Assembly: GCA_000002435.2 (NCBI GenBank)
Contig: CM018791.1
Strand: one strand, 5' to 3'
DNA: 64,000 nucleotides
Source of the DNA: Giardia intestinalis
Lineage: Eukaryota
Position 1 is the first letter of the stretch. Every line of letters begins with the position of its first letter. Position numbers and translations under genes: made by a program. Positions 24,676-59,559 of the stretch are shown here, one piece after another. Below the pieces are notes generated by a model. It searched no databases. It saw only the letters and a program-made list of their open reading frames with translations, and was not told the origin of the DNA.

Positions 24676-24956
24676 TTTATGGGCAGAGGCCCACGTAGCC
24701 TGTGGGGTCGATCTGATTAAAAGAGGATACGTAAAATAACGTTAAGTATATTAAAATTAAACCTATCAATTGAGTGTTGATTTGCAGATTGGCGCAGAAT
24801 AATAGAACTTTGTATTCTAAGTATATACGTAAAAATCTTGGGATAGAAGCAAAATAACTTGCTGTTCTCTGATGTTAGAGAAGCTTGTGCAAAACGGCTT
24901 CAACATATTAGTTGCCTCGTTTTTGTAGTGTAAATAAACTACAGCTCATTCTTAGA

Positions 24957-34649: not shown

Positions 34650-34802
34650 GTGGTTCTCCAGCTAGAGCTGTACGAGCTGGTTCTCTAGTGTGATTCAAGG
34701 CGCAGCCCTCCAAGGCCCTCTGTTGCTAAAAGAAATACTAAGTAAAAAGGGACATTTCACTTAAAAGTTGGTCGTTTGCTCCTGTATCGGTTTTGCAGGT
34801 GT
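34650..34802. promoter_or_regulatory. Shared divergent promoter region between two paralogous kinase-like genes
   Basis: This is a 153-bp interval between head-to-head ATGs. It contains A-rich stretches (CTAAAAGAAATACTAAGTAAAAAGGGACATTTCACTTAAAAG). Confidence 0.4.
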
Positions 34803-43236: not shown

Positions 43237-44202
43237 TCAGTACTCAAAAGGCTCATTATAGACGTTAGGGTCATGAGAATATTCTTCCAACCTCCTAAGT
43301 TTTTCCTCCATTTCTTCCAATTTTTTCTTTAGTGTTCTGATTTCGAGCATGCTTGATATGGAAGAAAATTCATCCTGGGGCTTCAAGACCTGCATAAGCA
43401 TGCTTGCTGTAAGGCGTTCCTTAGGGTTTAGTACCAAGATATGCTCCAGGATACTCCTAATGGTCACGTCCTTGATAGCAGAAAGATTCGGGGTCCAGCC
43501 CGCGACGTATACGGTCCTTGGTTGCTTAGCTTCAAGAAGGAAAGGGGTTTTCAGCTTTGAAGAGAGCTCATAGAGCACAATCCCGAGGCTCCACATGTCG
43601 GCAGCCGGAGTTAGCTTGTCCCCAAGCAGAACCTCTGGTGCAATGCAGTACATCAACGCAGTCGTTGCGTTCTGATCTCCAAAGCCCAAGTCAGTCAGGA
43701 CAAACTTTGTTTCTTCCTTGTTGACCAAGATGTTGGCGAGCTTAACATCGCCGTGAACAATCTCTTGTCGTTTATCCTCGTTATGGGCGTCCGCGGAATT
43801 GTGAAGATACTCTAAGGCGCTCCCTATTTGCTTTGCCACGTCTATGACTTGAGCAGTGGAAAAGCTTCTGTTGGTACGCTTATATGCTCTAACGGTACTT
43901 TCTAGAGAGCAAGCATAGCGTGCCATTGTCATATAAATAGCATTATTAGATTTATAGATACCCTCATATCTGATAAGGTTGGGGTGAGACAACTCCGTAA
44001 GAGTGATAATACCCTTTTCAAGAGCCGCAACGGAGTGTTCCGAAAGGTCAAGAGTGCTGATTTCCTTGACGACTTTGTCCTGCTCTCCATCAATAGAGTG
44101 AACAGTCCCGTAAAGGCCTTGACCCAGCTCCTGGCCCAATCTGCTTATTAACGCATTAACTGCCGCAGGATCCGTTACGATTTCCTTGGCCTTGCAATTC
44201 AT
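43237..44202 (-). CDS. NEK-like protein kinase with a C-terminal coiled coil
   Basis: Motifs present are LGQGLYGTV, VVKEIS, VHGDVKLANILV, TDLGFG and IAPEVLLGDKLTPAADMWSLGIVLYEL. The C-terminus reads LKKKLEEMEEKLRRLEE. Confidence 0.8.
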   Translation of the reverse strand: MNCKAKEIVTDPAAVNALISRLGQELGQGLYGTVHSIDGEQDKVVKEISTLDLSEHSVAALEKGIITLTELSHPNLIRYEGIYKSNNAIYMTMARYACSLESTVRAYKRTNRSFSTAQVIDVAKQIGSALEYLHNSADAHNEDKRQEIVHGDVKLANILVNKEETKFVLTDLGFGDQNATTALMYCIAPEVLLGDKLTPAADMWSLGIVLYELSSKLKTPFLLEAKQPRTVYVAGWTPNLSAIKDVTIRSILEHILVLNPKERLTASMLMQVLKPQDEFSSISSMLEIRTLKKKLEEMEEKLRRLEEYSHDPNVYNEPFEY

Positions 44203-44416: not shown

Positions 44417-47029
44417 TTACTTTGTTGCCTTTTCCGTTATTCGCTTCGGTATATCCTTCACACTCATTGCAAGGCTTTCTGGTGTGAAAGTAACGTGGTG
44501 CTGCTTTATTCGGGCTATGTCACGGAGTCTTTCCCATTTCGAGTCTTCTGTTGTAACCCGAAATGTAAGGCCTGACTGAGCGTTTAGGTAAGTTAGTAAA
44601 GTGTGGGAGAGGTTGTGCATACCACTTCCACCTCCTATAAACACTACTTCAATTGGTGCCTGGGGAAGATCAGAAACACGCTCCTGATCTTCCTGAGGCT
44701 CACTAGATGGGCCGCATGGCAACTTGTTCCACTGGGCCAAAACATTACTTTCTGCGGAAAATATACCGGAGCCCTGTGTCTGTGTGATGTAGCTGTTAGT
44801 TTCCCTGGCTACAGATAGCACTAGGTCTCCAATTCCGGAGACGCTAGAGCCCATTAACCGTGGATAGAAAAGCATCTGGGACGGAAAGATATGCTCATTG
44901 AATAGGAAAAGGCATACGCGCAGAGTTTTAGGGTCATCGGCCTCAAGAAAGCTGCTTAATGAGAGGTTGTTGAGGTACGCTTCTTTAAAGTACCCTGGAA
45001 CGCACTTCTTGTAAGTTATTGTAGGATGGGAGATATAAGGCCATATGATCGATGCATTTCTGTCAAAGTCTTGCACACTAACACCTAATTCTGCTAGCTT
45101 AAAAATTACCATATCCACCGCTTCGGTTGAATTAAGTAAGTATGTGTGTAGCTGGCGGATGACCTTTGCAGAAGATAGCTTCTCCATTGACGTGAAGCCG
45201 CTGAATTCTATTGCAGTGTCTACAAGCAAGTCTATATTTTTTCTTGTGCAGAAATTATTGTAATTGTACCGATCGGTTTGGAATTGAGCCTTCAATCGTG
45301 CATACAGCCGTGTTAAAATGGTAACAGCCTGGCTACGATCTAAAACGTTTCGATACACGTCCTTTGATGTCTCCGCAGAAGTTCGTACGGTGCTAGTGGA
45401 TGGAATACGCTTTATTTCTGGCTCATCATGCTCTGACTTGAGAGCGTTGTTAGATGGAAGAGTAAGTGGCTCCATGGAGATCAGCATGTCTGTGCTGCTA
45501 GTTACTATGTCATCTGTTTCTTCTTCTGCCTGTGCTTCTATTACCTCGTCACTCTCGTTTTCTTCCTCTACTATTGAACTATCGCCCTCAGGCTGATCAG
45601 AGTAGTCAGTATCAGAGCCAGCACGATCAACTTTATTCAGCTTAAATGCATCAGATCTATTCTTCTTTCTGTGGTTAGTCAACGGATTGCTCTCTGATGA
45701 ATTAGGTGTCTCCTGTTCATTACCGTGTACTCTGCTGGCACGCAGTCGTGCACGTTCCCTATTTGCCCAGACATTTCTTATGGAACTTCGCGAAATGCGT
45801 GCATTGATTAGTCCGAGCGTAGTGCTTCTGGCTTGCTTCTCTTCAGGGACTTCGGCCCCGTAAGAACAAGTATCTTGAAGTGCATTCAATTCGGCGATGC
45901 TTCCATGGAGCAGTCGAGCTGCTTCATGATCGCGTACCCCGTGGATAAGCTTAGTAAGGGTAGTGCGGCGGGCTTTTACAATAAAGCTTTGCCGTGCTTG
46001 AAGAAGCTCATTCTGCCGCGCTCCCTCAAAAAGCTCAATTAACAGTATTCCCGTGTGGATCATATTAGAGTGTCCCTTGGGATGAACATACGCTTCAGGG
46101 AACTTTGCTGAAAGAGACTCCATAACCTGCAGATAGCAGTTATATGCATCCATGGACATAGACAGATCAGAGTACCGTGTCTCCTGATAGAAAAGGGACT
46201 CCTTGTGCTGCTTGCACTTATTAAAGTGGTGGAGCATCTCTGCACACAGTTCATGATAAGTGTCTATTGAAAGAGCCACGCAGATGTGTGAGAGGACATA
46301 CTCTATAAACGTATTAGTAAACAAATGAGTGAATAGAGGGTAATGAATGTTTAGAAACTTGAGCAGCCAGAGTTGCACTGCTTGCATGCCGACAGGCAGC
46401 ACCTTAATAAGATGAGCGCTAGGAATGGAAAAGGTCTGCCTGGTTGTAGAGTAGAAGAGCGGATAGGCAGTAGTGCAACTATACCCTAGGTGAAGAACTA
46501 TCTGGAAGGGGTTCTTCGAGGAAAAGTAGAGCTCAGAAGGGGCAAATGAGACAGAAGTGGCTCCAAAATAGTGTAAGAAGATATCCGCTAGGATTATCAG
46601 TGAAAGCCGTGGGGTGCAGTAGGGAACAGTCACAAAAACAGGTATGCCTAGTACCTTCCGTGTCTCCTGAGCATCACTAGGAACCTGGGGCAAGGCAAAG
46701 GAAAACATATACTCCAGTATGTTCTGAACCAGTTCATAGTGAAGAAGCAGTCCACCCTTCCACTGCCCTTGCTCTTTTCCTCCATAAACGAACGGTGATC
46801 GAAAAGTCCTTCTCACAAAGTCTGCCTCTGTCATTTCGTTTCCCATCCTAAAGCATGAGTTCTTATTACGCGACTTGCTGACAGCAGTCCTCATTACATA
46901 GCGAGGCTCATCCTCCCCTAGAAATCCCAGCTGTATGGAGTGTGTCCCTAGATCGACTAAAAGCGTGTCGCTCTCAGGAATTGGGGATCCAGCGTACTTT
47001 CCACTAAAGGCAAAACGGCTTTGATCCAT
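44417..47029 (-). CDS. Divergent actin-related protein (ARP) of 870 aa with large insertions, including an acidic block
   Basis: The N-terminus LLVDLGTHSIQLGFLGEDEPRYVMRTAV aligns with the actin [28 protein letters not shown]. Later segments (IPVFVTVPYCTPRLSLIILADIFLHYFGATSVSFAPSELYFS and VVFIGGGSGMHNLSHTL) follow the actin fold order. The insert is EEENESDEVIEAQAEEETDD. Confidence 0.55.
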   Translation of the reverse strand: MDQSRFAFSGKYAGSPIPESDTLLVDLGTHSIQLGFLGEDEPRYVMRTAVSKSRNKNSCFRMGNEMTEADFVRRTFRSPFVYGGKEQGQWKGGLLLHYELVQNILEYMFSFALPQVPSDAQETRKVLGIPVFVTVPYCTPRLSLIILADIFLHYFGATSVSFAPSELYFSSKNPFQIVLHLGYSCTTAYPLFYSTTRQTFSIPSAHLIKVLPVGMQAVQLWLLKFLNIHYPLFTHLFTNTFIEYVLSHICVALSIDTYHELCAEMLHHFNKCKQHKESLFYQETRYSDLSMSMDAYNCYLQVMESLSAKFPEAYVHPKGHSNMIHTGILLIELFEGARQNELLQARQSFIVKARRTTLTKLIHGVRDHEAARLLHGSIAELNALQDTCSYGAEVPEEKQARSTTLGLINARISRSSIRNVWANRERARLRASRVHGNEQETPNSSESNPLTNHRKKNRSDAFKLNKVDRAGSDTDYSDQPEGDSSIVEEENESDEVIEAQAEEETDDIVTSSTDMLISMEPLTLPSNNALKSEHDEPEIKRIPSTSTVRTSAETSKDVYRNVLDRSQAVTILTRLYARLKAQFQTDRYNYNNFCTRKNIDLLVDTAIEFSGFTSMEKLSSAKVIRQLHTYLLNSTEAVDMVIFKLAELGVSVQDFDRNASIIWPYISHPTITYKKCVPGYFKEAYLNNLSLSSFLEADDPKTLRVCLFLFNEHIFPSQMLFYPRLMGSSVSGIGDLVLSVARETNSYITQTQGSGIFSAESNVLAQWNKLPCGPSSEPQEDQERVSDLPQAPIEVVFIGGGSGMHNLSHTLLTYLNAQSGLTFRVTTEDSKWERLRDIARIKQHHVTFTPESLAMSVKDIPKRITEKATK

Positions 47030-47290: not shown

Positions 47291-47755
47291 TCAAAGCTTG
47301 TACATGGCACTGATACGATCAAACAGAGACGTGGACTCTGTGTTTTCAATATATTCGCTTTCTGATGGGGCGGCTGAATCATCTTCGCAGAGTAGCTTGT
47401 CATTAGTTGTGCTGGAATGTGCATTTTTAGGCGTTGCAGCAGCATAGGGCACTGAGTCTGTGTCCGCCGACAATTGACTCTCTGTAAATGCCCGAGGCTG
47501 AATGGTCTGAGAGCTGCTAAAATCTCGAGGAAGCTTCTTAGTCACAGAGTATGGCTGCCGATTCAAGATTGGATTCTGTGATTTGTTTATTACCGATAAG
47601 TGTCTACTGCCAGCTTGGCTCGTTGTGAGTCTGCCGGGTCCAGGGCTTTTTGTCCGCTGCCTGGTAAGGATGGATGTTGAAATAGAGGGCTGTGAATCTG
47701 TCGATGCGAGGGAAACCGGTTTTTGTGGTAAATTGAGAAGTTCGGGAAGAGGCAT
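47291..47755 (-). CDS. Hypothetical Ser/Pro/Thr-rich small protein of about 154 aa
   Basis: The track starts this ORF at a GTG at 47866, which would overlap the upstream gene. The first ATG, at 47753-47755, is preceded by AGTAAATACAAAATG. This is low-complexity sequence and I am not sure it is coding. Confidence 0.3.
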   Translation of the reverse strand: MPLPELLNLPQKPVSLASTDSQPSISTSILTRQRTKSPGPGRLTTSQAGSRHLSVINKSQNPILNRQPYSVTKKLPRDFSSSQTIQPRAFTESQLSADTDSVPYAAATPKNAHSSTTNDKLLCEDDSAAPSESEYIENTESTSLFDRISAMYKL

Positions 47756-47822: not shown

Positions 47823-50800
47823 TCATAGGGACGGCCGGATTCCGGCGACACTAATGCCACTCTCACTTTCTTCTGTCCTTTCGACCCGGTATGCTTTTAT
47901 CTCGGTGTCCACAGTCTTGGTTAATCCATGGGGCGATTCTTGTGGAAAGGGGAAACCTGCACCACTAATAGATGGCATATTAAGACCACTGTCGCCATCA
48001 TTGCCAACTGTTCCAGTGCCAAGCATGGGGGCATAAACGACAACACCTTCTGGATCATCATCGTTGCTTGTATCGGGAGTTGCCCACAGTGCTTTTATCT
48101 CGGGGACCTGAAGAAGATCCTTTGCTCCAAGTCTTGTCCTTGGCGATGGTAGCAAAAGGAGGTTGATAAACGTAAGTAGCTCTACAGAGTAGACAGTACC
48201 ATCAGCGTCAGTTGACACATTGGAAAGGTCTAGGCCCGTGGGCTGGATAGAGGTCACTCCGGTAAATCCGTGACCAGTCTGCTTCAGCATTGGAAAGTCG
48301 TCAGCCAAAGGCCTGAGTGTGCAAAGCTCGTACAGAACAGATCCTAGAGACCATATATCACACTTCTCATCATACCCGTCGGTGGCTGGGCTCTGGTCTT
48401 GGTCAGTGCTCTGCATAGCAAGAACTTCTGGAGCCATGTACCCGATGGTTCCTGCTGATGCGTATATCCGATCCTTTATTGTGCCATGTCGTGCTCCAGG
48501 CGATGATATAGTCTTTGCCAGGCAGAAGTCGAAGATGTGCACCTTTCCATCTTTTGTTAGAAATAGTGCTTCGGGACGGATGTTTCTATGAACTACCTTA
48601 AGCCCAGTAAGCTCTGCTTTTTCAGTAGAGTGGAGATACTCCAAACCCTTCAGGGTTTCACATGCAATGCCCCATATGGTAGCCTCTGGTACAGGCGCTC
48701 CTTTCTCCAAGTAGCGTGTTATGAGCGATGCAACGTTCCCAAAAACGAAGAACTCAGTAATGATATATGCAGAGTACTGGTCTCCGTCGTAGAAGTAGTC
48801 TAGTAAAGGCGCGATGTTCTCGTGCATTACCTTCCTTAAAATGGTAGTTTCAGAGTCCAGTAGCTGAACGACATATGCGTCGATTGACGTGAACCTTGTC
48901 TCCTTGCAGGTGAGTATATGTCCATTTAACAAGTTCTTTATCTTGTATAGTTTGGAAATATTCATGTCGCAGAGAAAGTCCAAGATTTCATAGTCATCTC
49001 TTAGACGCCTCTTGGGCATCTTAGAGTTGAGGAGCCGCATGTTTTGCAGGGTGTCTGATGCTGCAGTCATAGCTGCCAGCAGGGTAACCTTAGTCTGTTC
49101 TTTGAGCATAACAGATATAAGAGTATTCAAGGCAGGAGTATAGTTTCGTGGTGCAGCCCATATATCATGCTTGAAATTAATATCAATACAGGAGACATCA
49201 TAGCAAGCCATGTCTGCATTGAAAAATGTGGCGTAAACTTGCTTTAGTGTGGCCATTTCGTACAAAACAGCCCCCACCGACCAAGTGTCCTGCAGAAGGG
49301 CATCATATGTCTGTCTGTAGCCATACTTGGTGCGAAGAGCATCCTGGGACATGTACATATCATCTGTAGAGAGTATTGCTGTCTGACTATTGAGCTCCTG
49401 CGACCCAGTTGGGTCTCCCAAATAGACACAGCACGTGAAGTCACATAGTTTCAGCGTTCCAATCCTAATTTCAGAGTCGTCTGTAAAACAAAACCTGAGA
49501 TTGTTAGGGGAGATTGCTAGGTTAGCAAAGGTACCAACTTGACCCTGTGAGTTCTTGAACTCCTGTATGTAAGAGAGCGCTGCAAGAAGTTCTTCAGCAC
49601 ACTTCCATATGCTGTACTCTTCTACTGGCTTATTTGCATCTGAGTATAACAGTAAGACATCAGCCAAGGTGAAGTCGGAAAGCCGCTCACTGATAACACA
49701 TAACTTCTTAACCTCTTTGTCGTAGAAGGCGTCTATGAATCTGTGAATATTGGGATGGTTAAAGCTCAGGAGAAGCTGTGTCTCTAGAATGATAGCGTTT
49801 CGAAGCTCTGGAGGCTTTATATTTAGCAAATCAATGTACTGGCATCTAAACAGTTCCTTTGCAGCTATAGATGCATTCAGGGGCCTTACTAAAATTGTGT
49901 CACCATGCAATGTGCTGGATTCTTCGTCAGTCATTATTATATATTTGCTGCGAAGCACCGATGAGCCAAACTTCTTCTTCACGAGCTTTATGAGTTTATC
50001 TTGCTCTTCTTCTTCTTTCGATTGCTCCACTTGTGGCTCTAGATGCTCCAAAGCAGGGGTGCTGGAGTACCGATCTTGCTCCTTTTCTAGTTCCTTTCCG
50101 GCTAGTAGTGAGTTCTCAGTTACACCTACAAGCAGCGTTTGCGTAGAGGGCTCTGTTGAATTAATGTTAGATCGATGAATGACTGAATCTACCAACTCAC
50201 TAGTATCATCACGCAGCGTGAGTTTTCTGCTATCTGCAAAGCTCAGAGAATGCTGAGCTTGAAGAGGTGCATCTTCTTCTATCTTTCCAGAAGCAGACAG
50301 ATCAACTGCGGCTTCGTCTTCATTCAGTTTTTCCTCTACAAGCGACTCTATCTTAGCGAGCTCAGGATTGATTATGCACCGCATAGAGAATAGATCTGCC
50401 AAAGGGTCCGTTGTACCACAAAATAGCATTCGAATAATCTTTGTTACATTGATATGTTCCTTCGTTGCCTTTAGATGATTAAGGTAAATGGGAAGGGAGA
50501 AGTCTATTAGCTCCTCTAGGGGCGTAGTTTGAAGCGTTTGCAGTATAGTACTGGACAACTCTGGTTGTTGACGCAACGATCCTTTCGTGTTCTTGTTGGA
50601 TAAGTAGCTCGATAAAGCGGTGCAGAAAGCTTTATGGGTATAAAGAGTAAAAAGCAATACACCGAGACACCAGAAGTCCAGATTATAATCTATAGTTGCA
50701 TAGGAGTCGACATAGGCATCTCCAAGAATCGCCTTTGTTTGCGCACTAACCGGGAGTCCGAGAGAGTAGAGAGCATGAAAGATGTTCAGCTTAATGCTCC

Positions 50801-53800
50801 CCTTGCTCAGCAGCATGACATTTGATGAAAGCAAACCACCATGGCAGAACTTGAGATTTAAGGGCTTTGGCATGGTTGCAACGTAAAAAGGAACGGGCAT
50901 ATACACTCTTTCCAATGCCTGCATCAGCTGGTCGCAAATGACAAAGAACTGTGCTTGTGAAAGTCCGGTAGATGAAGCCCGCAAAGTGACCAATAGGTCA
51001 TCCACTGTGCCATCATCTGTGGCTTCGGTAATGAGACACATGCATCCTCTTTTCAGGTCATCATACACGTCCACCAAGTTAGCAAGAAACGGGAATTCTA
51101 GCCCGGTTTGCTTCGAACTGGTAGGCCTGGGATGTTCAACGGCCGAAACGGCCTTCTGTTGGTAGAAGAAGAGCGAGGCTCCCAGCAGCAAAAGTTGATG
51201 AATTATGCGCTGATTTTTCGGGACCAGCTTTACCTCTTGACAAAAATACACTGTATCATCAGAATCGGGGTCGTAGTCATAGGAAGGCTGAATCGAGCGG
51301 TTACGTGTAAGGGTTAGAGCAGTTGGAGTGGCTGATTGAGCAGTCCTCCTTACCTTTAGTAAGCTGCAGCCATTGTCTTTATCCTCAGAAATAACTTTCA
51401 AAGTAGAGTACTGGTTTAGATTTCTGCATGGAATGGGAAATGGAAGCACAAAGTTGGAGAGGCCAACAGTCCCAACGGCGCTGAAGATAGAAGAGAATCT
51501 ATGCAGAAGCTGTTGTGCTGTCTGTCTTCTAGAGCTGTCGACTACAAGCATCATTCGAATCATCTCAATTAGCTCTCGAGAGTAGGGAGCTACTGGGACT
51601 TTGAATTGCTTTCCTAGCCGTAGTGCAGAAGCCGCAGACTCGTTCTCCATTAAGTACTGACTGAAGGATATATTGAAGCACATCTCAAAAAGAGTGGCTC
51701 CAGCGGCCCAAATATCGGAGGTCTTTGTGAAGAAGATATCACTTGTTGATTTCCCAGCCAGCACCTCTGGAGCTAAATAAGGTTCATAGTTAGGCAGAAT
51801 GGTTCGCGTGAAATGGTCTCCATAGAGATGCGCCATACTATAGTCAGATAGAATTGCAGAGTAGTCACTTCGTAGACTTGCGTAGTCCGGGGACTCAGGT
51901 TCCGAAGCCTTTCCGCTCGAAATCAGTAATATGTTCGCAGGACTGATGGCTCCATAGATATAATTGTGATCACATGCGTGCTGGATAACAGATAGAAGCA
52001 TACAAGCAACTTTCCAAATAGTTCTTTCCGGTATGTATGCACGCTGCTCTCTGTTGAGCTGCAGAAGAGTAGATAGGGGAAAGTCGTGGGCGTACTCGGT
52101 TATAACGTAGACATAACTATTGTCTATAAAGCTATCGACAGGCTTCTCAAGTAGATCGCAAGACAGAGTCCGCATAGCTGTAATCACTTCGCAAAGCTCT
52201 TGCACAGACAGCGGAAGCAACTTATTCACCGGGAACTCTTTCACCATGAAGTGCTTTGTTTCGTCCTTCTTGAGGGTGACCTTTAAGGAAACAGTGGTAG
52301 ACGTATCTATAGTGCAAGTGGACAGTTGCTGTGTCTGCTGTGCCATAAGCGGGTCGACAGAGGGATGAGGTAACTCAGATGTGGAGGTGGTTTTTGAAAG
52401 GTTCATAACGGACATATCTTCATGAGAAAGTAGGTCCCCATCAGCAGAAAGCAATGTTTCATCCATGAACTGGTCTAAAACCAAGTATCGCCGGTCAAAT
52501 TTCTTCTGCGTTAAGACTAATGGGAAAGGCCCTATATATGGCAAGATAGCCTTGGTAAGATAAGGATATTCCAGCAGAACGTCAGCAGATGGCCTTTCTG
52601 TCGGTAAAACTGTCAGCATCAGCTCCATGAACTTAATAAGCGAGTCGCTCCACTGAATAAAGCCCTCAATAAGTATGCGTATCTGCTTGCTGGAAATAAC
52701 TGTACTTCGATGCTCGTTGTACTCGTCATAGAAGGAGCGTCCATCGCTGCAGAGCTTATAAAGAATGCACCCCAATGCCCAGATATCATTCTTTTCGTTA
52801 AAGCCATCAATTCCAATACTGGGCTGGCCTATAAGGCCAAGCTTTTCTGGAGCAGAGTAGGGTATTGCTCCTGCAAAGGTCGCTGATAGAGAGCCGGCTT
52901 GTTCGTGTTCCTGTGCATGCCCTGTCAGAAGCACTCTTACGCTACCATCCAATCCAATAAAGATGCTATCAGGTGTCAGATTAGTGAGATAGATAGAGCC
53001 CAGACGGAGCCCATTGCTTGAAAAGCTGTGTGCTTTAGCAACAGCGACAAGAACCTGCGCCATAATGGACCAAATCTCCTGCTCAAGAAACGTGTGGTTA
53101 TGTTGAAAGCGTTGCTCACACAGAGAAGAAAGCGACATAGCCGGGTTACAGTCATAGACAAGAATGAGGCCAAGCTGTGGGTCAAAGAAGGTGTCTATCA
53201 CTGGAACAAAGCAATCATCCGTTAACAAGCGAGAAAATTTGATCTGGGAAAGTACATATGGTGATAAATCCCCAGAGATAAAATTCTCTGGGGATATACG
53301 AAGGGCTCGAGCAACAAACCGCTTATCCTCCGGCTGGCTGCGGTTTATCGTCAAGTCTGTGAATTGAAGACTTTGAAATGCTAGTGAATATTCAGTGGCG
53401 CCGGTTACCTCTGTCGATAACAAGACAAACTCTTGAAAGAGAGGGGTGTCGGCGAGCACCGCCTCAAGTGAATATGAAGACGAAAGGCTTCGCTGCTCAA
53501 TGCTAGTGGGCGAGCCGAAGATGCTCTTTTCCAACCACGATAAGCTGATTTTCTTAAGCAACTGTGATGCACCATAGCGCGCTTCGGGATCCTTCACTAG
53601 AAGCAGTCGAACGGTTGTTTCAAGAGTCTTAGAGTAAGGGGTGTAAGAGAAGACAAACTTGTTATCAAATGTGATATTTTTCAGATGTCCATAGCTTGCC
53701 TTGGCTCGATTAAAGTAGCGGGAGTAGAAAGGCAAGTAAGTCATCATTCGGTACATAACACAGCCAAGACTCCACAGATCGCATTTGTTAGTATACGTAT

Positions 53801-55514
53801 GATGAGAGGGGAAATGATAGAGCTTAGTTTCATTGATGCTCCCCATTTGTACCTCTAGCTTGTTTTGCACCTCTGGAGCCATGCACTCAATGCTGCCAAC
53901 CCGCCCACTGGGGTAGCGGTAGAGTGTGGAGAGTCCAAAATCAAATATCTTGATGGCGTGAGTCACTGGGTTTATCAGTATTGTCTCCAGCGAAAGGTAA
54001 CGAAATACGATTCGCTTAGTGTCATGGAGCCACTCCAAAAGCCCAAGAAGCTGCAGTATAATGGTCCAGATGATGTACTCGGGTAGCTGCTGTTTCTGCT
54101 CACGATTATACTTTATGAACTCGTCCAGGAAGACCATGTTGCTGAGCTGGGGCTTACCAATTTGATGCTGCTCGAAGCACATATCGCTGTTATCATAGAT
54201 AAATAAAATACGTCCCGTTGTGCTGCTATATATGCTGCAAATACAGGGTATTACTGCAGGATGTTCCAGACCTTTCTGATATAAAATATGCTCGTGCGCT
54301 GTGGCAACAATTGTGTTGCCTGTATCATCCTCCACGCGTATCTCCTTTGCCCAAAAGAGTGCGCCACTAGTGTGCTTTTTAACTATCACGTGCGTTCCTG
54401 TCCTATTCCTATACAATCTGCGGATAACCTTGTATTGAAGCACAGCGTCATCGCAAGTACACTCCTTGAGGTAATCAAGAACAATGTTAGTCGTTTCGGA
54501 GAGATATCGCCGAATAGCAGCCACAACAGGGGTTGCAAGAAGCAGACTAGCAGAGGCTCTGTTCTGAGGATTAACCTGGAGCATAAGACGGAGAGTGTGA
54601 TGTAGATCTTGGCTGTATGGGGTTGTGTCCTTTGATGAGCGACAGGCTAAACTGATGCTGGTTATGAATTCTTGCACATATATAGGGTTCCTAGCGTCTT
54701 TGGCGGCCTCTATCCTAGAAGAGGACGGCTTTGGGCAAAGAGGACCAATGGACTCTAACGTAACAGGGACTAGATTAGCAGTAGCAGGATTGGGTAGATT
54801 ATTTGTAACATTGTGCTCTTCCTCCCATTGAAGGGCGTCTGTAATTAGTGGAACTAAGGTGCATAGCTCATAAATGACAGCCCCCAGCGCCCAGATGTCA
54901 ACCCCCTCTTTATACTCTTTGCGCGCAAGCATCTCTGGAGACAGGTAATTCCTGCTTCCACAGAGTTGCTTAAGAAAGTCGTCTTTATACTTTTCCTTTG
55001 CAATACCAAAGTCAGTGAGCATACCGACGTAATTAGAATCCATCAATATATTGTCAGGTTTTATTGATCTGTGCACACAGCTCTTTTCTATGTTATACGT
55101 CTCGAGGTATGCCAACGCCTCCAAAACGCCAACTAGCACCTTCCAAATGATGTCTTCTGGGACGCGCTTCTTATTGGCGCGTGCTCGACGCATGTAAACG
55201 CTCAGTGGGCCATTTGGGCAGTATTGCATCACGTGATAAATCTTGTGTTCATCCTCGGCATAGAAGGTTTCTATGACTTGCGGAATCCGGGGGCAGTGAA
55301 GAGCCGTCAGCATATGTATCTCATTCAGCATTACCATATACATGGGCTTATCGAGCTTGGCGCATTGAAATTCCTTTACCACGACTTGAGAGTACTTTAG
55401 GTCTTTCGCCTTTGGCTGGGCCAAGAGTACCCGTCCACTAGCTCCTGTATGGAGTATTTTAAGGCACTTGTACTTGGCATCAAAAGTTGCGCGAGAAAAG
55501 CTGTCGACGTCCAT
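47823..55514 (-). CDS. Giant protein of 2563 aa made of about seven tandem NEK-like kinase or pseudokinase domains
   Basis: There are seven separate activation-segment and helix-F units. The first is YLSPEM...GVDIWALGAVIYELCT, with HRSIKPDN and DFG upstream. The second is CMAPEV...CDLWSLGCVMYRMMT, with IFDFGLS. The third is YSAPEKL...NDIWALGCILYKLCS. The fourth is YLAPEVLAGK...SDIWAAGATLFEMC. The fifth is LDFWCLGVLLFTLYT. The sixth is DTWSVGAVLYEMATL. The seventh is YMAPEVLAMQ...CDIWSLGSVLYELCTL, with HRNIRPEA and IFDFCLAK upstream. None of the seven has an aspartate in the HRD position. Confidence 0.85.
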   Translation of the reverse strand: MDVDSFSRATFDAKYKCLKILHTGASGRVLLAQPKAKDLKYSQVVVKEFQCAKLDKPMYMVMLNEIHMLTALHCPRIPQVIETFYAEDEHKIYHVMQYCPNGPLSVYMRRARANKKRVPEDIIWKVLVGVLEALAYLETYNIEKSCVHRSIKPDNILMDSNYVGMLTDFGIAKEKYKDDFLKQLCGSRNYLSPEMLARKEYKEGVDIWALGAVIYELCTLVPLITDALQWEEEHNVTNNLPNPATANLVPVTLESIGPLCPKPSSSRIEAAKDARNPIYVQEFITSISLACRSSKDTTPYSQDLHHTLRLMLQVNPQNRASASLLLATPVVAAIRRYLSETTNIVLDYLKECTCDDAVLQYKVIRRLYRNRTGTHVIVKKHTSGALFWAKEIRVEDDTGNTIVATAHEHILYQKGLEHPAVIPCICSIYSSTTGRILFIYDNSDMCFEQHQIGKPQLSNMVFLDEFIKYNREQKQQLPEYIIWTIILQLLGLLEWLHDTKRIVFRYLSLETILINPVTHAIKIFDFGLSTLYRYPSGRVGSIECMAPEVQNKLEVQMGSINETKLYHFPSHHTYTNKCDLWSLGCVMYRMMTYLPFYSRYFNRAKASYGHLKNITFDNKFVFSYTPYSKTLETTVRLLLVKDPEARYGASQLLKKISLSWLEKSIFGSPTSIEQRSLSSSYSLEAVLADTPLFQEFVLLSTEVTGATEYSLAFQSLQFTDLTINRSQPEDKRFVARALRISPENFISGDLSPYVLSQIKFSRLLTDDCFVPVIDTFFDPQLGLILVYDCNPAMSLSSLCEQRFQHNHTFLEQEIWSIMAQVLVAVAKAHSFSSNGLRLGSIYLTNLTPDSIFIGLDGSVRVLLTGHAQEHEQAGSLSATFAGAIPYSAPEKLGLIGQPSIGIDGFNEKNDIWALGCILYKLCSDGRSFYDEYNEHRSTVISSKQIRILIEGFIQWSDSLIKFMELMLTVLPTERPSADVLLEYPYLTKAILPYIGPFPLVLTQKKFDRRYLVLDQFMDETLLSADGDLLSHEDMSVMNLSKTTSTSELPHPSVDPLMAQQTQQLSTCTIDTSTTVSLKVTLKKDETKHFMVKEFPVNKLLPLSVQELCEVITAMRTLSCDLLEKPVDSFIDNSYVYVITEYAHDFPLSTLLQLNREQRAYIPERTIWKVACMLLSVIQHACDHNYIYGAISPANILLISSGKASEPESPDYASLRSDYSAILSDYSMAHLYGDHFTRTILPNYEPYLAPEVLAGKSTSDIFFTKTSDIWAAGATLFEMCFNISFSQYLMENESAASALRLGKQFKVPVAPYSRELIEMIRMMLVVDSSRRQTAQQLLHRFSSIFSAVGTVGLSNFVLPFPIPCRNLNQYSTLKVISEDKDNGCSLLKVRRTAQSATPTALTLTRNRSIQPSYDYDPDSDDTVYFCQEVKLVPKNQRIIHQLLLLGASLFFYQQKAVSAVEHPRPTSSKQTGLEFPFLANLVDVYDDLKRGCMCLITEATDDGTVDDLLVTLRASSTGLSQAQFFVICDQLMQALERVYMPVPFYVATMPKPLNLKFCHGGLLSSNVMLLSKGSIKLNIFHALYSLGLPVSAQTKAILGDAYVDSYATIDYNLDFWCLGVLLFTLYTHKAFCTALSSYLSNKNTKGSLRQQPELSSTILQTLQTTPLEELIDFSLPIYLNHLKATKEHINVTKIIRMLFCGTTDPLADLFSMRCIINPELAKIESLVEEKLNEDEAAVDLSASGKIEEDAPLQAQHSLSFADSRKLTLRDDTSELVDSVIHRSNINSTEPSTQTLLVGVTENSLLAGKELEKEQDRYSSTPALEHLEPQVEQSKEEEEQDKLIKLVKKKFGSSVLRSKYIIMTDEESSTLHGDTILVRPLNASIAAKELFRCQYIDLLNIKPPELRNAIILETQLLLSFNHPNIHRFIDAFYDKEVKKLCVISERLSDFTLADVLLLYSDANKPVEEYSIWKCAEELLAALSYIQEFKNSQGQVGTFANLAISPNNLRFCFTDDSEIRIGTLKLCDFTCCVYLGDPTGSQELNSQTAILSTDDMYMSQDALRTKYGYRQTYDALLQDTWSVGAVLYEMATLKQVYATFFNADMACYDVSCIDINFKHDIWAAPRNYTPALNTLISVMLKEQTKVTLLAAMTAASDTLQNMRLLNSKMPKRRLRDDYEILDFLCDMNISKLYKIKNLLNGHILTCKETRFTSIDAYVVQLLDSETTILRKVMHENIAPLLDYFYDGDQYSAYIITEFFVFGNVASLITRYLEKGAPVPEATIWGIACETLKGLEYLHSTEKAELTGLKVVHRNIRPEALFLTKDGKVHIFDFCLAKTISSPGARHGTIKDRIYASAGTIGYMAPEVLAMQSTDQDQSPATDGYDEKCDIWSLGSVLYELCTLRPLADDFPMLKQTGHGFTGVTSIQPTGLDLSNVSTDADGTVYSVELLTFINLLLLPSPRTRLGAKDLLQVPEIKALWATPDTSNDDDPEGVVVYAPMLGTGTVGNDGDSGLNMPSISGAGFPFPQESPHGLTKTVDTEIKAYRVERTEESESGISVAGIRPSL

Positions 55515-55593
55515 GTCTCGGCGTTCTCTTGTGCGCAGAGACTAAAATTTTATTGCCAACTCCTTTTAACAGCACAAGAGAGTCAGGATTGCC

Positions 55594-58500
55594 ATGGATC
55601 AAGACAAGCAGGGAGAGTTCGAAAGCTGCGATGAGACAGCAAGCATCCAAGTTGAGACACCGTCGCTGGTGGAGACTCCCGATATTCAGTTTACCATAGT
55701 AGAGAGATCTACACTTGAGCAGGCTTCTTCTGGGGTATCCTTTAGTGTTTCCAGCATCTCGGTTGAAACTCCGTCCCTCAATGTTCAGGAATCTATAACC
55801 AGTGCGTCTGAGGTGCTTTCCACACCAGCCACTATTGACCAAGTGTGTCCTCGTTCTGCACAGTCTCCAGCCGCACCACTTAGCATACTATCATTCAAAA
55901 ATACTAACCTTCGTCCGCTACCACCAAATGACAGTCGTTTTAGCGCTTCCAGCTCCACTGCTCTGCTTCCGGACCCCTCTCTCACAGGTGGTTCTGACAG
56001 CAGGACATCGCGATCATCACTCCTTCCTCGTGAAAGCATTTCAGTTAATACAATTACTGAAGAGAATAGCAAAAGTACGCAAAGCCTGGTCTCGCTTGGA
56101 GAGGTTTTGGAAGGGCCTATCAATTCCCAGCCCTTGGATGATGATCGCTTTCGGACGTATCCATTTGTAGATGTTGAACGGCAGATGCTATCGAATAAGA
56201 TAGAAGCTCTAGAATCTGAGCTTCTTCTAGCTAGGAGCGAAGCAGATGAGCTTATGCTCCAATTAGAGATAGAGAGGCACCAATTTGAACTTATTTCTCA
56301 GTGTCTTTGCCAAACCCTAACTACGGAACGGGCCATTTCTCCTATGTTGATCCCCTCCCCTTCAAATGCCGTGGAACCCCCTGCCGCCTATGCAGATGTT
56401 GACGTTCAAACCATTAGTAACAATGAGACAATGGTTGAGCTTAACAAGCAAGAATATGAGTCCTTTATGGTCATCGCTATGAAGCTCCAAGATGAAAATA
56501 GCACCCTCTGGGAACAGGTTTCGTCCAAAGATAAAACCATAGCTCTCACGACTGAGGCCGTTGATACACTCACAGATGACGTAAAGCATTTGACTGACCA
56601 GCTTTCGATAATTGGCGAGACTAATCTCTCATTGCAGATTGCTTTGCAAGAGAAGGCTTCAATTATAGAGCAATATGAATTAGAGCGAGCAAAGGCTGCA
56701 CTCTCTGATAGCTGTCAACAAACAGACAACCCAGAGTGTGTTTCAAAAGAGGTCTCTGCAACCGAACCGGTAGAGCTCCCCCTTAGGGCAGATGTAGAGC
56801 AACAAACAAGCCTTACATCAACTCAGTCATCTGAGTTATCGGGTGATGCACATTCCGTACACGATGAACCTAAGGATATGACAGGCACTCCTTTGAAGGC
56901 TCTAGCTGAGATCAGCGAACAGATCTCTGTCAAGAAGGAAGAATTAGTAGGAGTTATGGCAAAAATAGACGCTCTTGGGTCGTGGTATAGCAAAGAAGTA
57001 GAGAGGTTGGAGGGCATTAAGTACGTCCAGAGTGAAGCAGATAGCTTGCTTACTGCATCGAAGCAGGAAGGCAAACAGTCAACCTTGTTAGAATTTGCAG
57101 GAAGCGTCCTACCAGCTCCGTCTCACGATGGAAGCCGTGAATCTCGAACAATAACACGCCTCATTGAGGTGCTAAACTTTCAGCCATACAAAGACTCCTG
57201 TACTTCCGGTGATCTATCTGATTGTATTCTTACTTATGCGTCCGAAGTTTTGCCGCACATAGTAGACATACAGCGCATGTTACGGGCCCTGCAGAAGGAG
57301 TACTATGCGTATCTAGAGCAGCTAAGGGCGGATACGAAGACTATTGCAACTCTAAGCGCCGATAATGAGGTCCTTCGTGCTGCCAATGCAAGCCTCCAAG
57401 AATCTGTTGAGGCCCTAAAGGCGCAAGTAGATTCTGATGGGCTAACTAAGAATGATCTTCCCACGGAAAAGGATATTCCACTTCATAGCGCCTCAGTTAA
57501 CACAAGGACCCCAGCTAATGGTCTTCTCGGTCAGTTACTACCATTTCTAAACGATGAGCTCACGAAAAAGAAGGCTCTAAACATCGATGCACTTGAAAAA
57601 ACAATTAGCAAGCAAACAGAGCTCCCACTCTCACGTACTTTAAGGCCAGACCTTTCAAAGATGGCGGACGACTTTTCTGTTTCGGCCGATGTGTCGCTAA
57701 CTGAAGACTCAATGAATCAGCTGCGAGAAATGATCGATGCAAATGATCAGCCTACACACGAGCATGGGGCTTCCAGGTGGAAGGACTACGAGCCACTTTT
57801 GATAGCCATGCAAGCCAGGCACCAAGCCAAACGATCTCTGACGCGTGATATAGATGTTGTATCTGGCCAGCCAGACTACAAGTTGCACTATTTGCGTAGC
57901 AAGTTGGACGCCTTTATGCTCCGACACCAGGTGTTAAAGATCTTTAATGTGCTAGGAACTCTTTTGGAGGAGAACAATTTGCAGCAAGGATCCAAAGACT
58001 CCTTTTGCTCTACTGACCTATCTAAGCTCATCGAGGTCTTAGACCACAAAACCAGGCGTGTGAATGAGCTGGAGACAATTCTTCTAGCTCTCTATCAGCA
58101 GTCGACACACTTTTTCCGAACCTATAGGAGTGTGCTGGACATGGCCACTGTCTCTCTCATTAAGCAAGACTCGTTATTGATGCACAGCGATATGGGTGCA
58201 ATAAGCATGATATTGCTGCATGCAAAGGTTTGCTTGGAAAACTCGAGTAACGAGACAATTAAGGACGCAGTTCTAAGAGCGTTTAATGAGCAACCGTGCT
58301 CACAAATCACACCCAATTCTCATGCGAATGTACTTGCTTCTGCAGACCTTCTAGATGGTAACAAGGAACCAACCAATCCCTTGACAATGACAGTATTGCA
58401 AACTAACCCAGAGCCAAGCTTGCGGTCTCTACTGCAAACAGATATACGACCATCGTTTTTGTTATCCCACTGTGATCCTGCGGCATCTCAAGGTCAGATA

Positions 58501-59559
58501 CCGGAGGATACGTCTAAACATACTCCCCTAATGCGGGCGGTTATAGAAGGAAACTACAGCAGCATAACAGCCGCCCTCATAACCAAGTACGCTTGCAAGC
58601 AGGACGGTGCAGGCATGACTGCTCTGATGCACGCGGTGGTGCATCGAAGGTTCGGCCTCATATCAAAGTTGGCAGCGGCAGAGGCAGGCATGGCTCTACC
58701 AGATGGCCGCACTGCACTATTCCTAGCGATTGAATTGAAGTACATGGACATAGCGGAGGAGCTTCGGCCATACGAGGGTATCCCAGTAGCCAGAATCCCT
58801 GTTCTGCACAGAGAGCAGAAACATGCGCATACAAAGAAGGGTGCTCAATCTAGAAGAGAGTCACTTGGGTCTTCCAATTTGGAGACAGGTCATGGGGGAA
58901 AAGTCACCGGGCTTACCAACTTAATGGCAGCGGCTGAGAAGAACGACCTAGTGACTGTTTGGATATTAATTCCCAATGAGGGATGCATACAAGACTCCAG
59001 GGGGCGGACAGCGCTCATGTATGCGGCTTACGCTGGCAATCTGCGAGTCGTGGAACTCCTCCTGCAGTTCGAGGCCCGCATGCAAGACTCGAACGGATGC
59101 ACAGCCCTAATGTATGCAGTGCAGGCGGGAAACATCGAGATAGTTAAGCTCTTAGCAAGTACAGAGGCACGCATCATCAACAACACATTTTCAACCGCCC
59201 TGATGATGGCTGCTCGTCTTAAAAGTGAGCAAATGATGAACGTATTGGCTCCACTGGAGTGTGGTATTCAGGGTTACAGCTCTAGTACCGCACGCCTTTT
59301 ACCGATGTCTCCCAGAGCGCGAAGAGGATCTATAAACCCTCAGAACTTCTTCACGGCTGATGCAAATGGATCAGGAGTGACAGCGTTAATGATTTCTGCG
59401 AATGTAGGATTTAAATATGGGGTGTCACTTCTTCTGAATGAAGAGTTGTCCCTTCGAGACAGAAACGGGTACAGCGCCTACGACTATGCCGTTTATGGTA
59501 AAGGTGACGGGCACTTACAAAAAGAAATAGCACATTTACTGCGAGAAGAGGTGAACTAG
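55594..59559 (+). CDS. Coiled-coil plus ankyrin-repeat protein of 1321 aa, Giardia 'Protein 21.1' type
   Basis: The N-terminal two-thirds is coiled coil. The C-terminus has TAL(M/F) ankyrin signatures: GMTALMHAVVHRRFG, GRTALFLAIELKY, GRTALMYAAYAGNLRVVELLL, GCTALMYAVQAGNIEIVKLL and STALMMAARL. Confidence 0.8.
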   Translation: MDQDKQGEFESCDETASIQVETPSLVETPDIQFTIVERSTLEQASSGVSFSVSSISVETPSLNVQESITSASEVLSTPATIDQVCPRSAQSPAAPLSILSFKNTNLRPLPPNDSRFSASSSTALLPDPSLTGGSDSRTSRSSLLPRESISVNTITEENSKSTQSLVSLGEVLEGPINSQPLDDDRFRTYPFVDVERQMLSNKIEALESELLLARSEADELMLQLEIERHQFELISQCLCQTLTTERAISPMLIPSPSNAVEPPAAYADVDVQTISNNETMVELNKQEYESFMVIAMKLQDENSTLWEQVSSKDKTIALTTEAVDTLTDDVKHLTDQLSIIGETNLSLQIALQEKASIIEQYELERAKAALSDSCQQTDNPECVSKEVSATEPVELPLRADVEQQTSLTSTQSSELSGDAHSVHDEPKDMTGTPLKALAEISEQISVKKEELVGVMAKIDALGSWYSKEVERLEGIKYVQSEADSLLTASKQEGKQSTLLEFAGSVLPAPSHDGSRESRTITRLIEVLNFQPYKDSCTSGDLSDCILTYASEVLPHIVDIQRMLRALQKEYYAYLEQLRADTKTIATLSADNEVLRAANASLQESVEALKAQVDSDGLTKNDLPTEKDIPLHSASVNTRTPANGLLGQLLPFLNDELTKKKALNIDALEKTISKQTELPLSRTLRPDLSKMADDFSVSADVSLTEDSMNQLREMIDANDQPTHEHGASRWKDYEPLLIAMQARHQAKRSLTRDIDVVSGQPDYKLHYLRSKLDAFMLRHQVLKIFNVLGTLLEENNLQQGSKDSFCSTDLSKLIEVLDHKTRRVNELETILLALYQQSTHFFRTYRSVLDMATVSLIKQDSLLMHSDMGAISMILLHAKVCLENSSNETIKDAVLRAFNEQPCSQITPNSHANVLASADLLDGNKEPTNPLTMTVLQTNPEPSLRSLLQTDIRPSFLLSHCDPAASQGQIPEDTSKHTPLMRAVIEGNYSSITAALITKYACKQDGAGMTALMHAVVHRRFGLISKLAAAEAGMALPDGRTALFLAIELKYMDIAEELRPYEGIPVARIPVLHREQKHAHTKKGAQSRRESLGSSNLETGHGGKVTGLTNLMAAAEKNDLVTVWILIPNEGCIQDSRGRTALMYAAYAGNLRVVELLLQFEARMQDSNGCTALMYAVQAGNIEIVKLLASTEARIINNTFSTALMMAARLKSEQMMNVLAPLECGIQGYSSSTARLLPMSPRARRGSINPQNFFTADANGSGVTALMISANVGFKYGVSLLLNEELSLRDRNGYSAYDYAVYGKGDGHLQKEIAHLLREEVN

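Follow-up and report, generated by a model that had tools for sequence, protein, structure and literature searches.

Background

How many kinase folds can one polypeptide chain carry, and what would keep them there if none of them acted as an enzyme? This question is raised by GL50803_87945, a gene of Giardia intestinalis located in a 64,000-nucleotide stretch of contig CM018791.1 (assembly GCA_000002435.2), which we call the window. The gene is a minus-strand open reading frame (ORF) at 47823..55514, comprising 2563 codons and a stop according to the ORF list and its translation. An exact-sequence look-up returned the identical protein of G. intestinalis WB, named "Kinase, NEK" and filed under the identifiers GL50803_87945, GK269, XP_001710057.1, KAE8303050.1 and UniProt A8B2V2. 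A sequence-only reading of the window had described the product as a single polypeptide of seven NEK-like kinase folds, none of them with a catalytic aspartate, and this description is borne out by Pfam searches and by alignment with NEK2 and NEK1. Seven kinase-fold units are present in a single ORF, and all of them lack the aspartate that acts as catalytic base. Taking the parts of the interpretation together, we consider it probable that GL50803_87945 is an expressed single-exon gene, that it encodes a chain of seven pseudokinase domains which derive from NEK kinases and diverged in ancient times, and that this chain serves as a non-catalytic scaffold.

The architecture of the protein has been recorded before. 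In Additional file 1 (Table S1) of Manning et al. 2011 (Genome Biol 12:R66), the entry GK269 carries the identical protein sequence and is annotated as 'Dead Nek - missing D166' and '7 Kinase domains'. The seven-domain architecture was therefore already known, in a supplementary table only, contrary to the sequence-only reading, which knew of no described seven-fold array. The GK269 note scores the catalytic residues of the first domain only; it comes with no per-domain table, no comparison with G. muris and no function. What is added here is a map of catalytic residues by domain, the conservation of both architecture and dead state in G. muris, the synteny of the locus and evidence of purifying selection. 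Another literature match, to PMC12669663, was discarded: the matching string is a PubMed Central identifier in the reference list of that article.

Seven kinase folds in one chain

The protein was divided into nine segments and each of them was run separately against Pfam, where the curated cut-off of the Pkinase profile (PF00069) is 31.7 bits. The features of the gene are listed below with the evidence for each; positions in the protein are given in amino acids (aa), and matches to Protein Data Bank (PDB) sequences are marked as PDB matches.

47823..55514, minus strand: whole gene GL50803_87945 (ORF list, translation, exact look-up, Manning 2011 Table S1)
54525..55466, minus strand: domain D1, aa 17-330, with an insert of ~70 aa in the carboxy-terminal lobe (C-lobe) (Pfam 140 bits, PDB match, alignment)
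53550..54401, minus strand: domain D2, aa 372-655 (Pfam 82 bits, PDB match, alignment)
52545..53438, minus strand: domain D3, about aa 693-990 (Pfam 62 bits over profile positions 61-263, PDB match, alignment)
51501..52274, minus strand: domain D4, aa 1081-1338, with an insert between catalytic loop and DFG equivalent (Pfam 70 bits, alignments)
50352..51248, minus strand: domain D5, about aa 1423-1721 (Pfam 19 bits, hhalign, AlphaFold2, Foldseek)
49863..50351, minus strand: acidic D5-D6 linker of low hydrophobicity, aa 1722-1884 (composition; no Pfam match)
49089..49805, minus strand: domain D6, aa 1904-2142 (Pfam 54 bits, PDB match, alignment)
48108..48959, minus strand: domain D7, aa 2186-2469 (Pfam 117 bits, PDB matches, alignment)
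47826..48107, minus strand: C-terminal tail rich in Ser, Thr, Pro and Gly, aa 2470-2563 (composition; no Pfam match)

Across the full-length protein the Pkinase profile reaches 511 bits in seven stretches, and all full-protein Pfam matches belong to kinase families. The sequence-only reading had named such a search as one of its checks, and a count of two or fewer kinase folds as the outcome that would speak against it; the search supports seven, six of them above the cut-off as single segments and D5 weakly (E 1e-3). Neither the D5-D6 linker nor the C-terminal tail gave a match when their segments were searched against Pfam. The D-x-W-x-x-G motif occurs exactly seven times, once in each domain, as that reading had claimed, but the APE-type motif, which it had likewise ascribed to all seven, is found as [AS]PE in five, D5 and D6 being without it.

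As D5 falls under the Pfam cut-off, its fold was assessed by other means. Compared by hhalign, the profile of the four D5 orthologs matches the profile of D7 with 97.8% probability (E 1.3e-12), that of D1 with 95.4% and that of D6 with 95.6%. An AlphaFold2 model of the domain has a predicted local distance difference test (pLDDT) score of 78.7 and a predicted template modelling (pTM) score of 0.80, with the caveat that the alignment behind the model included sibling kinase domains. When this model was compared with the PDB by Foldseek, 50 out of the 50 matches listed were protein kinase or pseudokinase structures, WNK1, NEK2, PAK1 and MST among them; 1761 PDB matches had E <= 0.001, and template modelling scores were moderate, 0.34-0.57 among the matches listed. 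On this evidence we accept a kinase fold for D5 in spite of its sub-threshold Pfam score, and profile comparison and predicted structure together support the view that this fold is homologous to that of the other domains.

Pairwise identity between the seven domains is 12-27%, which lies at or under the "~25-30%" given in Manning et al. 2011. The linkers between them differ in length. D1-D2 (~29 aa), D2-D3 (~39 aa) and D6-D7 (~25 aa) are short, D3-D4 and D4-D5 measure ~75-85 aa each, and the longest is the D5-D6 linker (164 aa), composed of 20% Asp plus Glu and 27% hydrophobic residues.

Relationship to NEK kinases

Among solved structures, the best sequence match is NEK2 for D1, D3 and D7 and NEK7 for D2, D4 and D6. 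The strongest of these matches is that of D1 (E 6e-26), in which HRS is aligned to HRD of NEK2, followed by D7, for which NEK2 takes all of the first five places among PDB matches (E 3e-20). D3 (E 6e-12), D2 (E 1e-11) and D4 (NEK7/NEK2, E 3e-11) give similar values, and D6 a lower one (E 8e-7). D5 had no significant match to PDB sequences, the best having an E value of 0.12. Judged by the best match to a solved structure, six of the seven domains would thus be assigned to the NEK family. Manning et al. 2011 file GK269 as Nek-Unclassified. A 2025 re-annotation of the Giardia kinome moves most Giardia 'Neks' to 'non-core protein kinases' of ambiguous affinity and reports 293 protein kinase domains, numbered by position within each protein.

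Concerning the origin of the array, two routes come into consideration, internal duplication and fusion of Nek genes. In phmmer comparisons each domain gives higher scores with canonical kinases of other organisms than with its siblings in the chain, so pairwise scores cannot settle which route was taken; NEK2 or NEK7 as best match of six domains appears compatible with either.

Loss of catalytic residues

The seven domains from four orthologs were aligned with the kinase domains of NEK2 and NEK1. Residue states of the WB protein are given below, with Lys72 (the beta3 lysine), Asp166, Asn171 and Asp184 in PKA numbering.

D1: beta3 Lys position K; alphaC Glu position E; HRD position HRS; Asn171 position N; DFG position DFG; APE position SPE
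D2: beta3 Lys position K; alphaC Glu position E; HRD position FRY; Asn171 position T; DFG position DFG; APE position APE
D3: beta3 Lys position R; alphaC Glu position Q; HRD position LTN; Asn171 position S; DFG position LTG; APE position APE
D4: beta3 Lys position K; alphaC Glu position E; HRD position YGA; Asn171 position N; DFG position DYS; APE position APE
D5: beta3 Lys position Q; alphaC Glu position L; HRD position HGG; Asn171 position N; DFG position NIF; APE position none
D6: beta3 Lys position Q; alphaC Glu position E; HRD position NLA; Asn171 position N; DFG position DFT; APE position none
D7: beta3 Lys position K; alphaC Glu position E; HRD position HRN; Asn171 position A; DFG position DFC; APE position APE

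The triad of Lys72, Asp166 and Asp184 is complete in none of the seven domains. Asp166 is missing from every one of them, in agreement with the sequence-only reading; in D6 the position may be read as NLA or, in a register shifted by one residue, as ANL, and neither contains aspartate. Lys72 is absent from D3, D5 and D6, and Asp184 from D3 (LTG) and D5 (NIF). The DFG aspartate is therefore retained in D1, D2, D4, D6 and D7, and the earlier count of five domains without DFG is correct for the literal tripeptide but not for the aspartate itself. The same reading had credited D1 and D7 with recognisable equivalents of the glycine loop, VAIK and DFG. No glycine loop is recognisable in D7, where the WB protein has CDMNISK at this position, and the VAIK lysine and DFG are found in D2 as well.

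Degeneration has reached different stages along the chain. D1 is the most canonical domain, with the beta3 lysine, the alphaC glutamate, Asn171 and DFG all retained around the HRS loop. The catalytic loop of D2, FRYLSLET, has lost both Asp166 and Asn171. In D3 the active site is fully degenerate (Lys to Arg, Glu to Gln, HRD to LTN, DFG to LTG), and the most degenerate domain of all is D5, in which Lys is replaced by Gln, Glu by Leu, HRD by HGG and DFG by NIF, and APE is absent. With a kinase fold, the absence of an essential catalytic residue and retention under selection (see below), the domains are, as far as sequence can tell, pseudokinases.

Loss of the aspartate need not abolish all activity. 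HER3 (ErbB3) has an HRN catalytic loop and keeps weak activity, and D7 resembles it in the exchange of Asp for Asn and in its retained beta3 lysine and DFG aspartate. HER3 is, however, a single-domain member of the receptor tyrosine kinase family, whereas in D7 Asn171 and the glycine loop are gone as well. By analogy, GL50803_87945 might be a low-activity or non-canonical kinase, in which D1 (HRS) or D7 (HRN) is still weakly capable of phosphotransfer or autophosphorylation, while the remaining domains control this activity or bring in substrates. The residues retained by D1, its loop VHRSIKPDNI, which is identical in G. muris, and the lysine, glutamate and DFG aspartate of D7 speak for such an activity, as does the observation that loss of catalytic residues is not always the end of activity (Hagen et al., PMC3243723). 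We nevertheless regard this explanation as unlikely, considering that the catalytic base is missing throughout, that the base position of D7 in G. muris is occupied by Lys (HRK), contrary to a conserved chemistry at this site, and that GK269 is scored as dead by Manning et al. 2011.

Conservation in Giardia

A homology search revealed one ortholog of 2582 aa with 80% identity to GL50803_87945 and two of G. muris type, 2411 and 2412 aa long, with 35-36% identity at 97% coverage. The seven domains are colinear in the orthologs, and identity to G. muris is 31-49% by domain; the least conserved region is the D5-D6 linker (23-24%), and the C-terminal tail is mostly missing from G. muris, with 75 of 93 positions gapped. 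The catalytic loops of the G. muris protein read HRS, LRY, LVN, YGA, HGA, HLA and HRK, so that the aspartate is missing from all seven of its domains too. As the G. muris ortholog is colinear and devoid of the aspartate in every domain, both the architecture and the dead state predate the split of G. intestinalis and G. muris. The order of genes around the locus is likewise conserved in four loci, where a divergent ankyrin gene, the seven-kinase gene, a small ORF of ~155-165 aa and an actin-like gene of ~850-870 aa follow one another. The sequence-only reading had suggested looking for a syntenic ortholog in other Giardia, and such orthologs were found with architecture, aspartate losses and gene order all kept.

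D4 of the G. muris-type proteins contains ~33 aa of inserts between the equivalents of catalytic loop and DFG (about aa 1195-1225 in the numbering of the window protein) that are absent from G. intestinalis. They represent a lineage-specific loop expansion within a dead active site.

Selection was estimated by the Nei-Gojobori method from the WB gene and the ortholog with 80% identity. In every domain and linker the proportion of nonsynonymous differences (pN) is 0.05-0.18 and that of synonymous differences (pS) 0.62-0.74. The ratio of the corresponding rates (dN/dS) is about 0.02-0.10 by region (0.098 in D5, 0.054 in the long linker, about 0.05-0.07 in linkers) and ~0.06 overall, all these values being approximate because dS is saturated. 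Strong purifying selection acts on each domain and on each linker. The view of the sequence-only reading that the gene is old and maintained is thus supported by the colinear G. muris ortholog with its dead domains and by the dN/dS ratio.

An artefact has to be considered at this point, either a fusion of adjacent Nek genes in assembly or annotation or a decaying array of pseudogenes. Giardia Neks are numerous and sometimes arranged in tandem, D5 is very degenerate, and some multi-kinase models elsewhere look fused, as in Tritrichomonas, where NCBI splits one locus into adjacent models of 502 and 1942 aa. Against this, the four coding sequences have no internal stops, and the ORF is intact for 2411-2582 codons in four independent genomes; by exact look-up the WB protein is carried by 108 contigs, the longest of 1.97 Mb. 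The low dN/dS of the linkers and the colinearity of the G. muris protein point the same way, and so do the SAGE values (serial analysis of gene expression) listed for GK269 in Manning 2011 Table S1 (R 1.95, maximum 5.2). The assembly-level concatenation that the sequence-only reading had itself named as a possible objection finds no support in these independent assemblies, and we consider an artefact effectively excluded.

Beyond Giardia, an exhaustive HMMER search with aa 1-1015 against 1.84 billion representative proteins had one true ortholog among its matches, the protein of G. muris (944 bits), all further matches scoring <=240 bits, and a word-indexed homology search likewise gave Giardia orthologs only. 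Other diplomonads were not seen among the top matches whose source was looked up; a very diverged ortholog of Spironucleus or Hexamita could have escaped these searches.

Other multi-kinase proteins

The next-best HMMER matches are predicted multi-kinase proteins with 4-6 Pkinase domains from Tritrichomonas, the oomycetes Achlya and Thraustotheca, and a plant. Predictions of this 4-6-domain kind comprise P0049 and P0056 (cluster with Tritrichomonas musculus), P0050 (Tritrichomonas foetus), P0048, P0047 and P0061 (Thraustotheca), P0034 (Achlya) and P0062 (Erigeron canadensis). Given the Tritrichomonas locus split by NCBI, some of them may be fused models.

A larger array among these matches is predicted in P0064, a protein of 2911 aa from a metagenome assembly in ENA, with ten back-to-back tyrosine-kinase-like domains (PK_Tyr_Ser-Thr, 2214 bits in 10 stretches). 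Both HRDxxxxN and DFG are present in only two of the ten, the rest having HLS, HGN and similar sequences, so that this array, besides being larger than that of the Giardia protein, is mostly degenerate. Members of its cluster are located on contigs of up to 801 kb. Predicted arrays thus reach ten domains, and seven has ceased to be the maximum among them.

Such proteins share with GL50803_87945 the presence of 4-10 Pkinase domains in one predicted chain. They differ from it in being non-orthologous (<=240 versus 944 bits) and in that most have several intact HRD and DFG motifs; none of them is known to be dead in all domains.

Proposed function

We propose that GL50803_87945 would not be a phosphotransferase but a large scaffold or an allosteric platform of non-catalytic nature, with each diverged domain providing a binding surface of its own. 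Judging from their retained residues, D1 (Lys, Glu, Asn, DFG) and D7 (Lys, Glu, DFG Asp) may bind nucleotide as a conformational switch, D2 and D4 could perhaps do so too, and D3, D5 and D6 are probably pure interaction modules. The short D1-D2-D3 and D6-D7 linkers, together with the long acidic linker between D5 and D6, suggest two compact modules connected by a flexible spacer. Binding partners would probably be cytoskeletal, by analogy with other Nek pseudokinases of Giardia. As a tentative extension of this scaffold model, each dead domain may bind a partner of its own and for this reason have been retained since before G. intestinalis and G. muris separated, the whole protein forming a modular, possibly nucleotide-gated platform or molecular ruler for a cytoskeletal structure specific to Giardia. 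If this were true, it would be the first functionally defined scaffold made of several domains that are all pseudokinases.

The analogy is drawn from the ventral disc and lateral crest, to which many ankyrin-repeat proteins of Giardia and several of its Nek pseudokinases localise (Hagen et al. 2011, PMC3243723). Three of these pseudokinases, DAP24321, DAP13981 and DAP17231, are like GL50803_87945 NEK-derived, Giardia-specific and without catalytic residues; a structural or regulatory part in the cytoskeleton has been proposed for them. They have one kinase domain each, followed in two of them by ankyrin repeats, whereas GL50803_87945 has seven and no ankyrin. The same absence sets it apart from the typical Giardia Nek, in which an N-terminal kinase is combined with TALM-ankyrin repeats and sometimes a coiled coil or RING.

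Several points weigh against the scaffold model or weaken parts of it. D1 keeps every residue of the ATP site except the catalytic base, and residual or non-canonical catalysis is accordingly possible as judged from its residues. The saturation of dS, noted above, makes the strength of selection an approximate figure. An AlphaFold2 model of D1-D3 (aa 1-1015), built from the alignment of four orthologs, was uninformative (mean pLDDT 34, pTM 0.26), and the compact modules are thus suggested by linker lengths only. Data on localisation, interaction, nucleotide binding or knock-down of GL50803_87945 were not found in the main texts of the searchable literature. The protein is not among the disc-associated proteins tabulated in PMC3243723, nor was it found in an encystation proteome supplement. 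The cytoskeletal association proposed in the sequence-only reading consequently gains no support for this particular protein, which is absent from the disc table and from the main texts of the searchable literature.

Chains with more than one kinase fold are known from kinase-pseudokinase tandems, such as JAK (JH2-JH1) and plant WTK/Pm24, where the dead domain is regulatory or a decoy. Decoy pseudokinases are a familiar idea for the tandem kinase proteins of plants. To our knowledge, JAK-like and plant tandem kinase proteins consist of two domains, three being rare, and a catalytically competent one is never missing. GL50803_87945 does not belong to this class, having the full triad in none of its seven domains.

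A decoy role can nevertheless be conceived for it, namely that of a sponge: by tying up the activators, regulators or substrates of the active Neks in Giardia, its dead NEK domains would buffer Nek signalling. Besides the plant precedent, the NEK-like character of the domains and their preserved substrate-side C-lobe motifs (DxWxxG in all seven, APE in five) favour this idea. An identity of 12-27% between the domains would, on the other hand, fit seven different partners better than the titration of one, and we find a decoy function rather improbable, somewhat more so than residual catalysis in D1 or D7.

Genomic surroundings

Two features adjoin the gene upstream:

55515..55593, no strand assigned: intergenic spacer of 79 bp between the two start codons, with A/T-rich stretches inside
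55594..59559, plus strand: divergent ankyrin-repeat neighbour, listed for context only (exact look-up; Pfam Ank_2 128 bits in its C-terminal part)

The neighbour is XP_001710060.1, "Ankyrin repeat protein 1", of 1321 aa according to exact look-up. The sequence-only reading had described it as transcribed divergently across an 80-bp shared promoter. The divergent geometry and a gap of 79 bp were found, and the same arrangement of ankyrin and seven-kinase genes recurs in the locus of the 80%-identity ortholog and, with a gap of 20 bp, in G. muris; the shared promoter is conjecture. As a special feature of this gene it was rejected, since a narrow divergent gap is present in every ortholog locus and other genes of the window are packed similarly close.

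Directly downstream of the kinase gene, a Ser/Pro-rich ORF of about 154 aa occupies 47291..47755 (minus strand). It starts with MPLPELLNLP and ends with LFDRISAMYKL, its N- and C-terminal motifs are conserved, and a counterpart is found in the same position in the 80%-identity locus and both G. muris-type loci. With the GTG at 47866 that the ORF list gives as its start, it would run into the end of the kinase gene; if it begins at the conserved ATG, 67 bp separate the two. A Pfam search with this ORF gave no match. The next gene, at 44417..47029 (minus strand), encodes a protein of 870 aa with a weak N-terminal match to Actin (Pfam 30.8 bits, residues 19-192) and is syntenic in four Giardia loci; it may code for an actin-related protein that is divergent and carries a long extension.

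Two further kinase genes are present in the window. The product of 43237..44202 (minus strand) is a stand-alone kinase domain of 321 aa (Pkinase 112 bits); the gene at its position in the 80%-identity ortholog locus encodes 444 aa, with ankyrin matches. At 34776..37706 (plus strand), a protein of 976 aa has an N-terminal kinase domain (132 bits). Four long ORFs of 983-2266 aa, at 2130..6443 (minus strand), 14532..17483, 19156..24675 and 24912..31712 (all plus strand), gave no Pfam match at E <= 1e-4. The G+C content is raised locally, to 0.585 at 16-18 kb and 0.541 at 32-34 kb, and is about 0.47 elsewhere.

Conclusions

About 70% of the Giardia kinome consists of diverged Neks, and, by the count of Manning et al. 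2011, all but 56 of the 198 Giardia Neks are likely pseudokinases. GL50803_87945 shows how far pseudokinase evolution can reach, with seven folds in one chain, each of them catalytically dead and yet held by purifying selection. For the design of constructs, the map of residues by domain and the conservation seen in G. muris offer a rational basis, and work on this protein would directly address whether Giardia pseudokinases serve as structural scaffolds.

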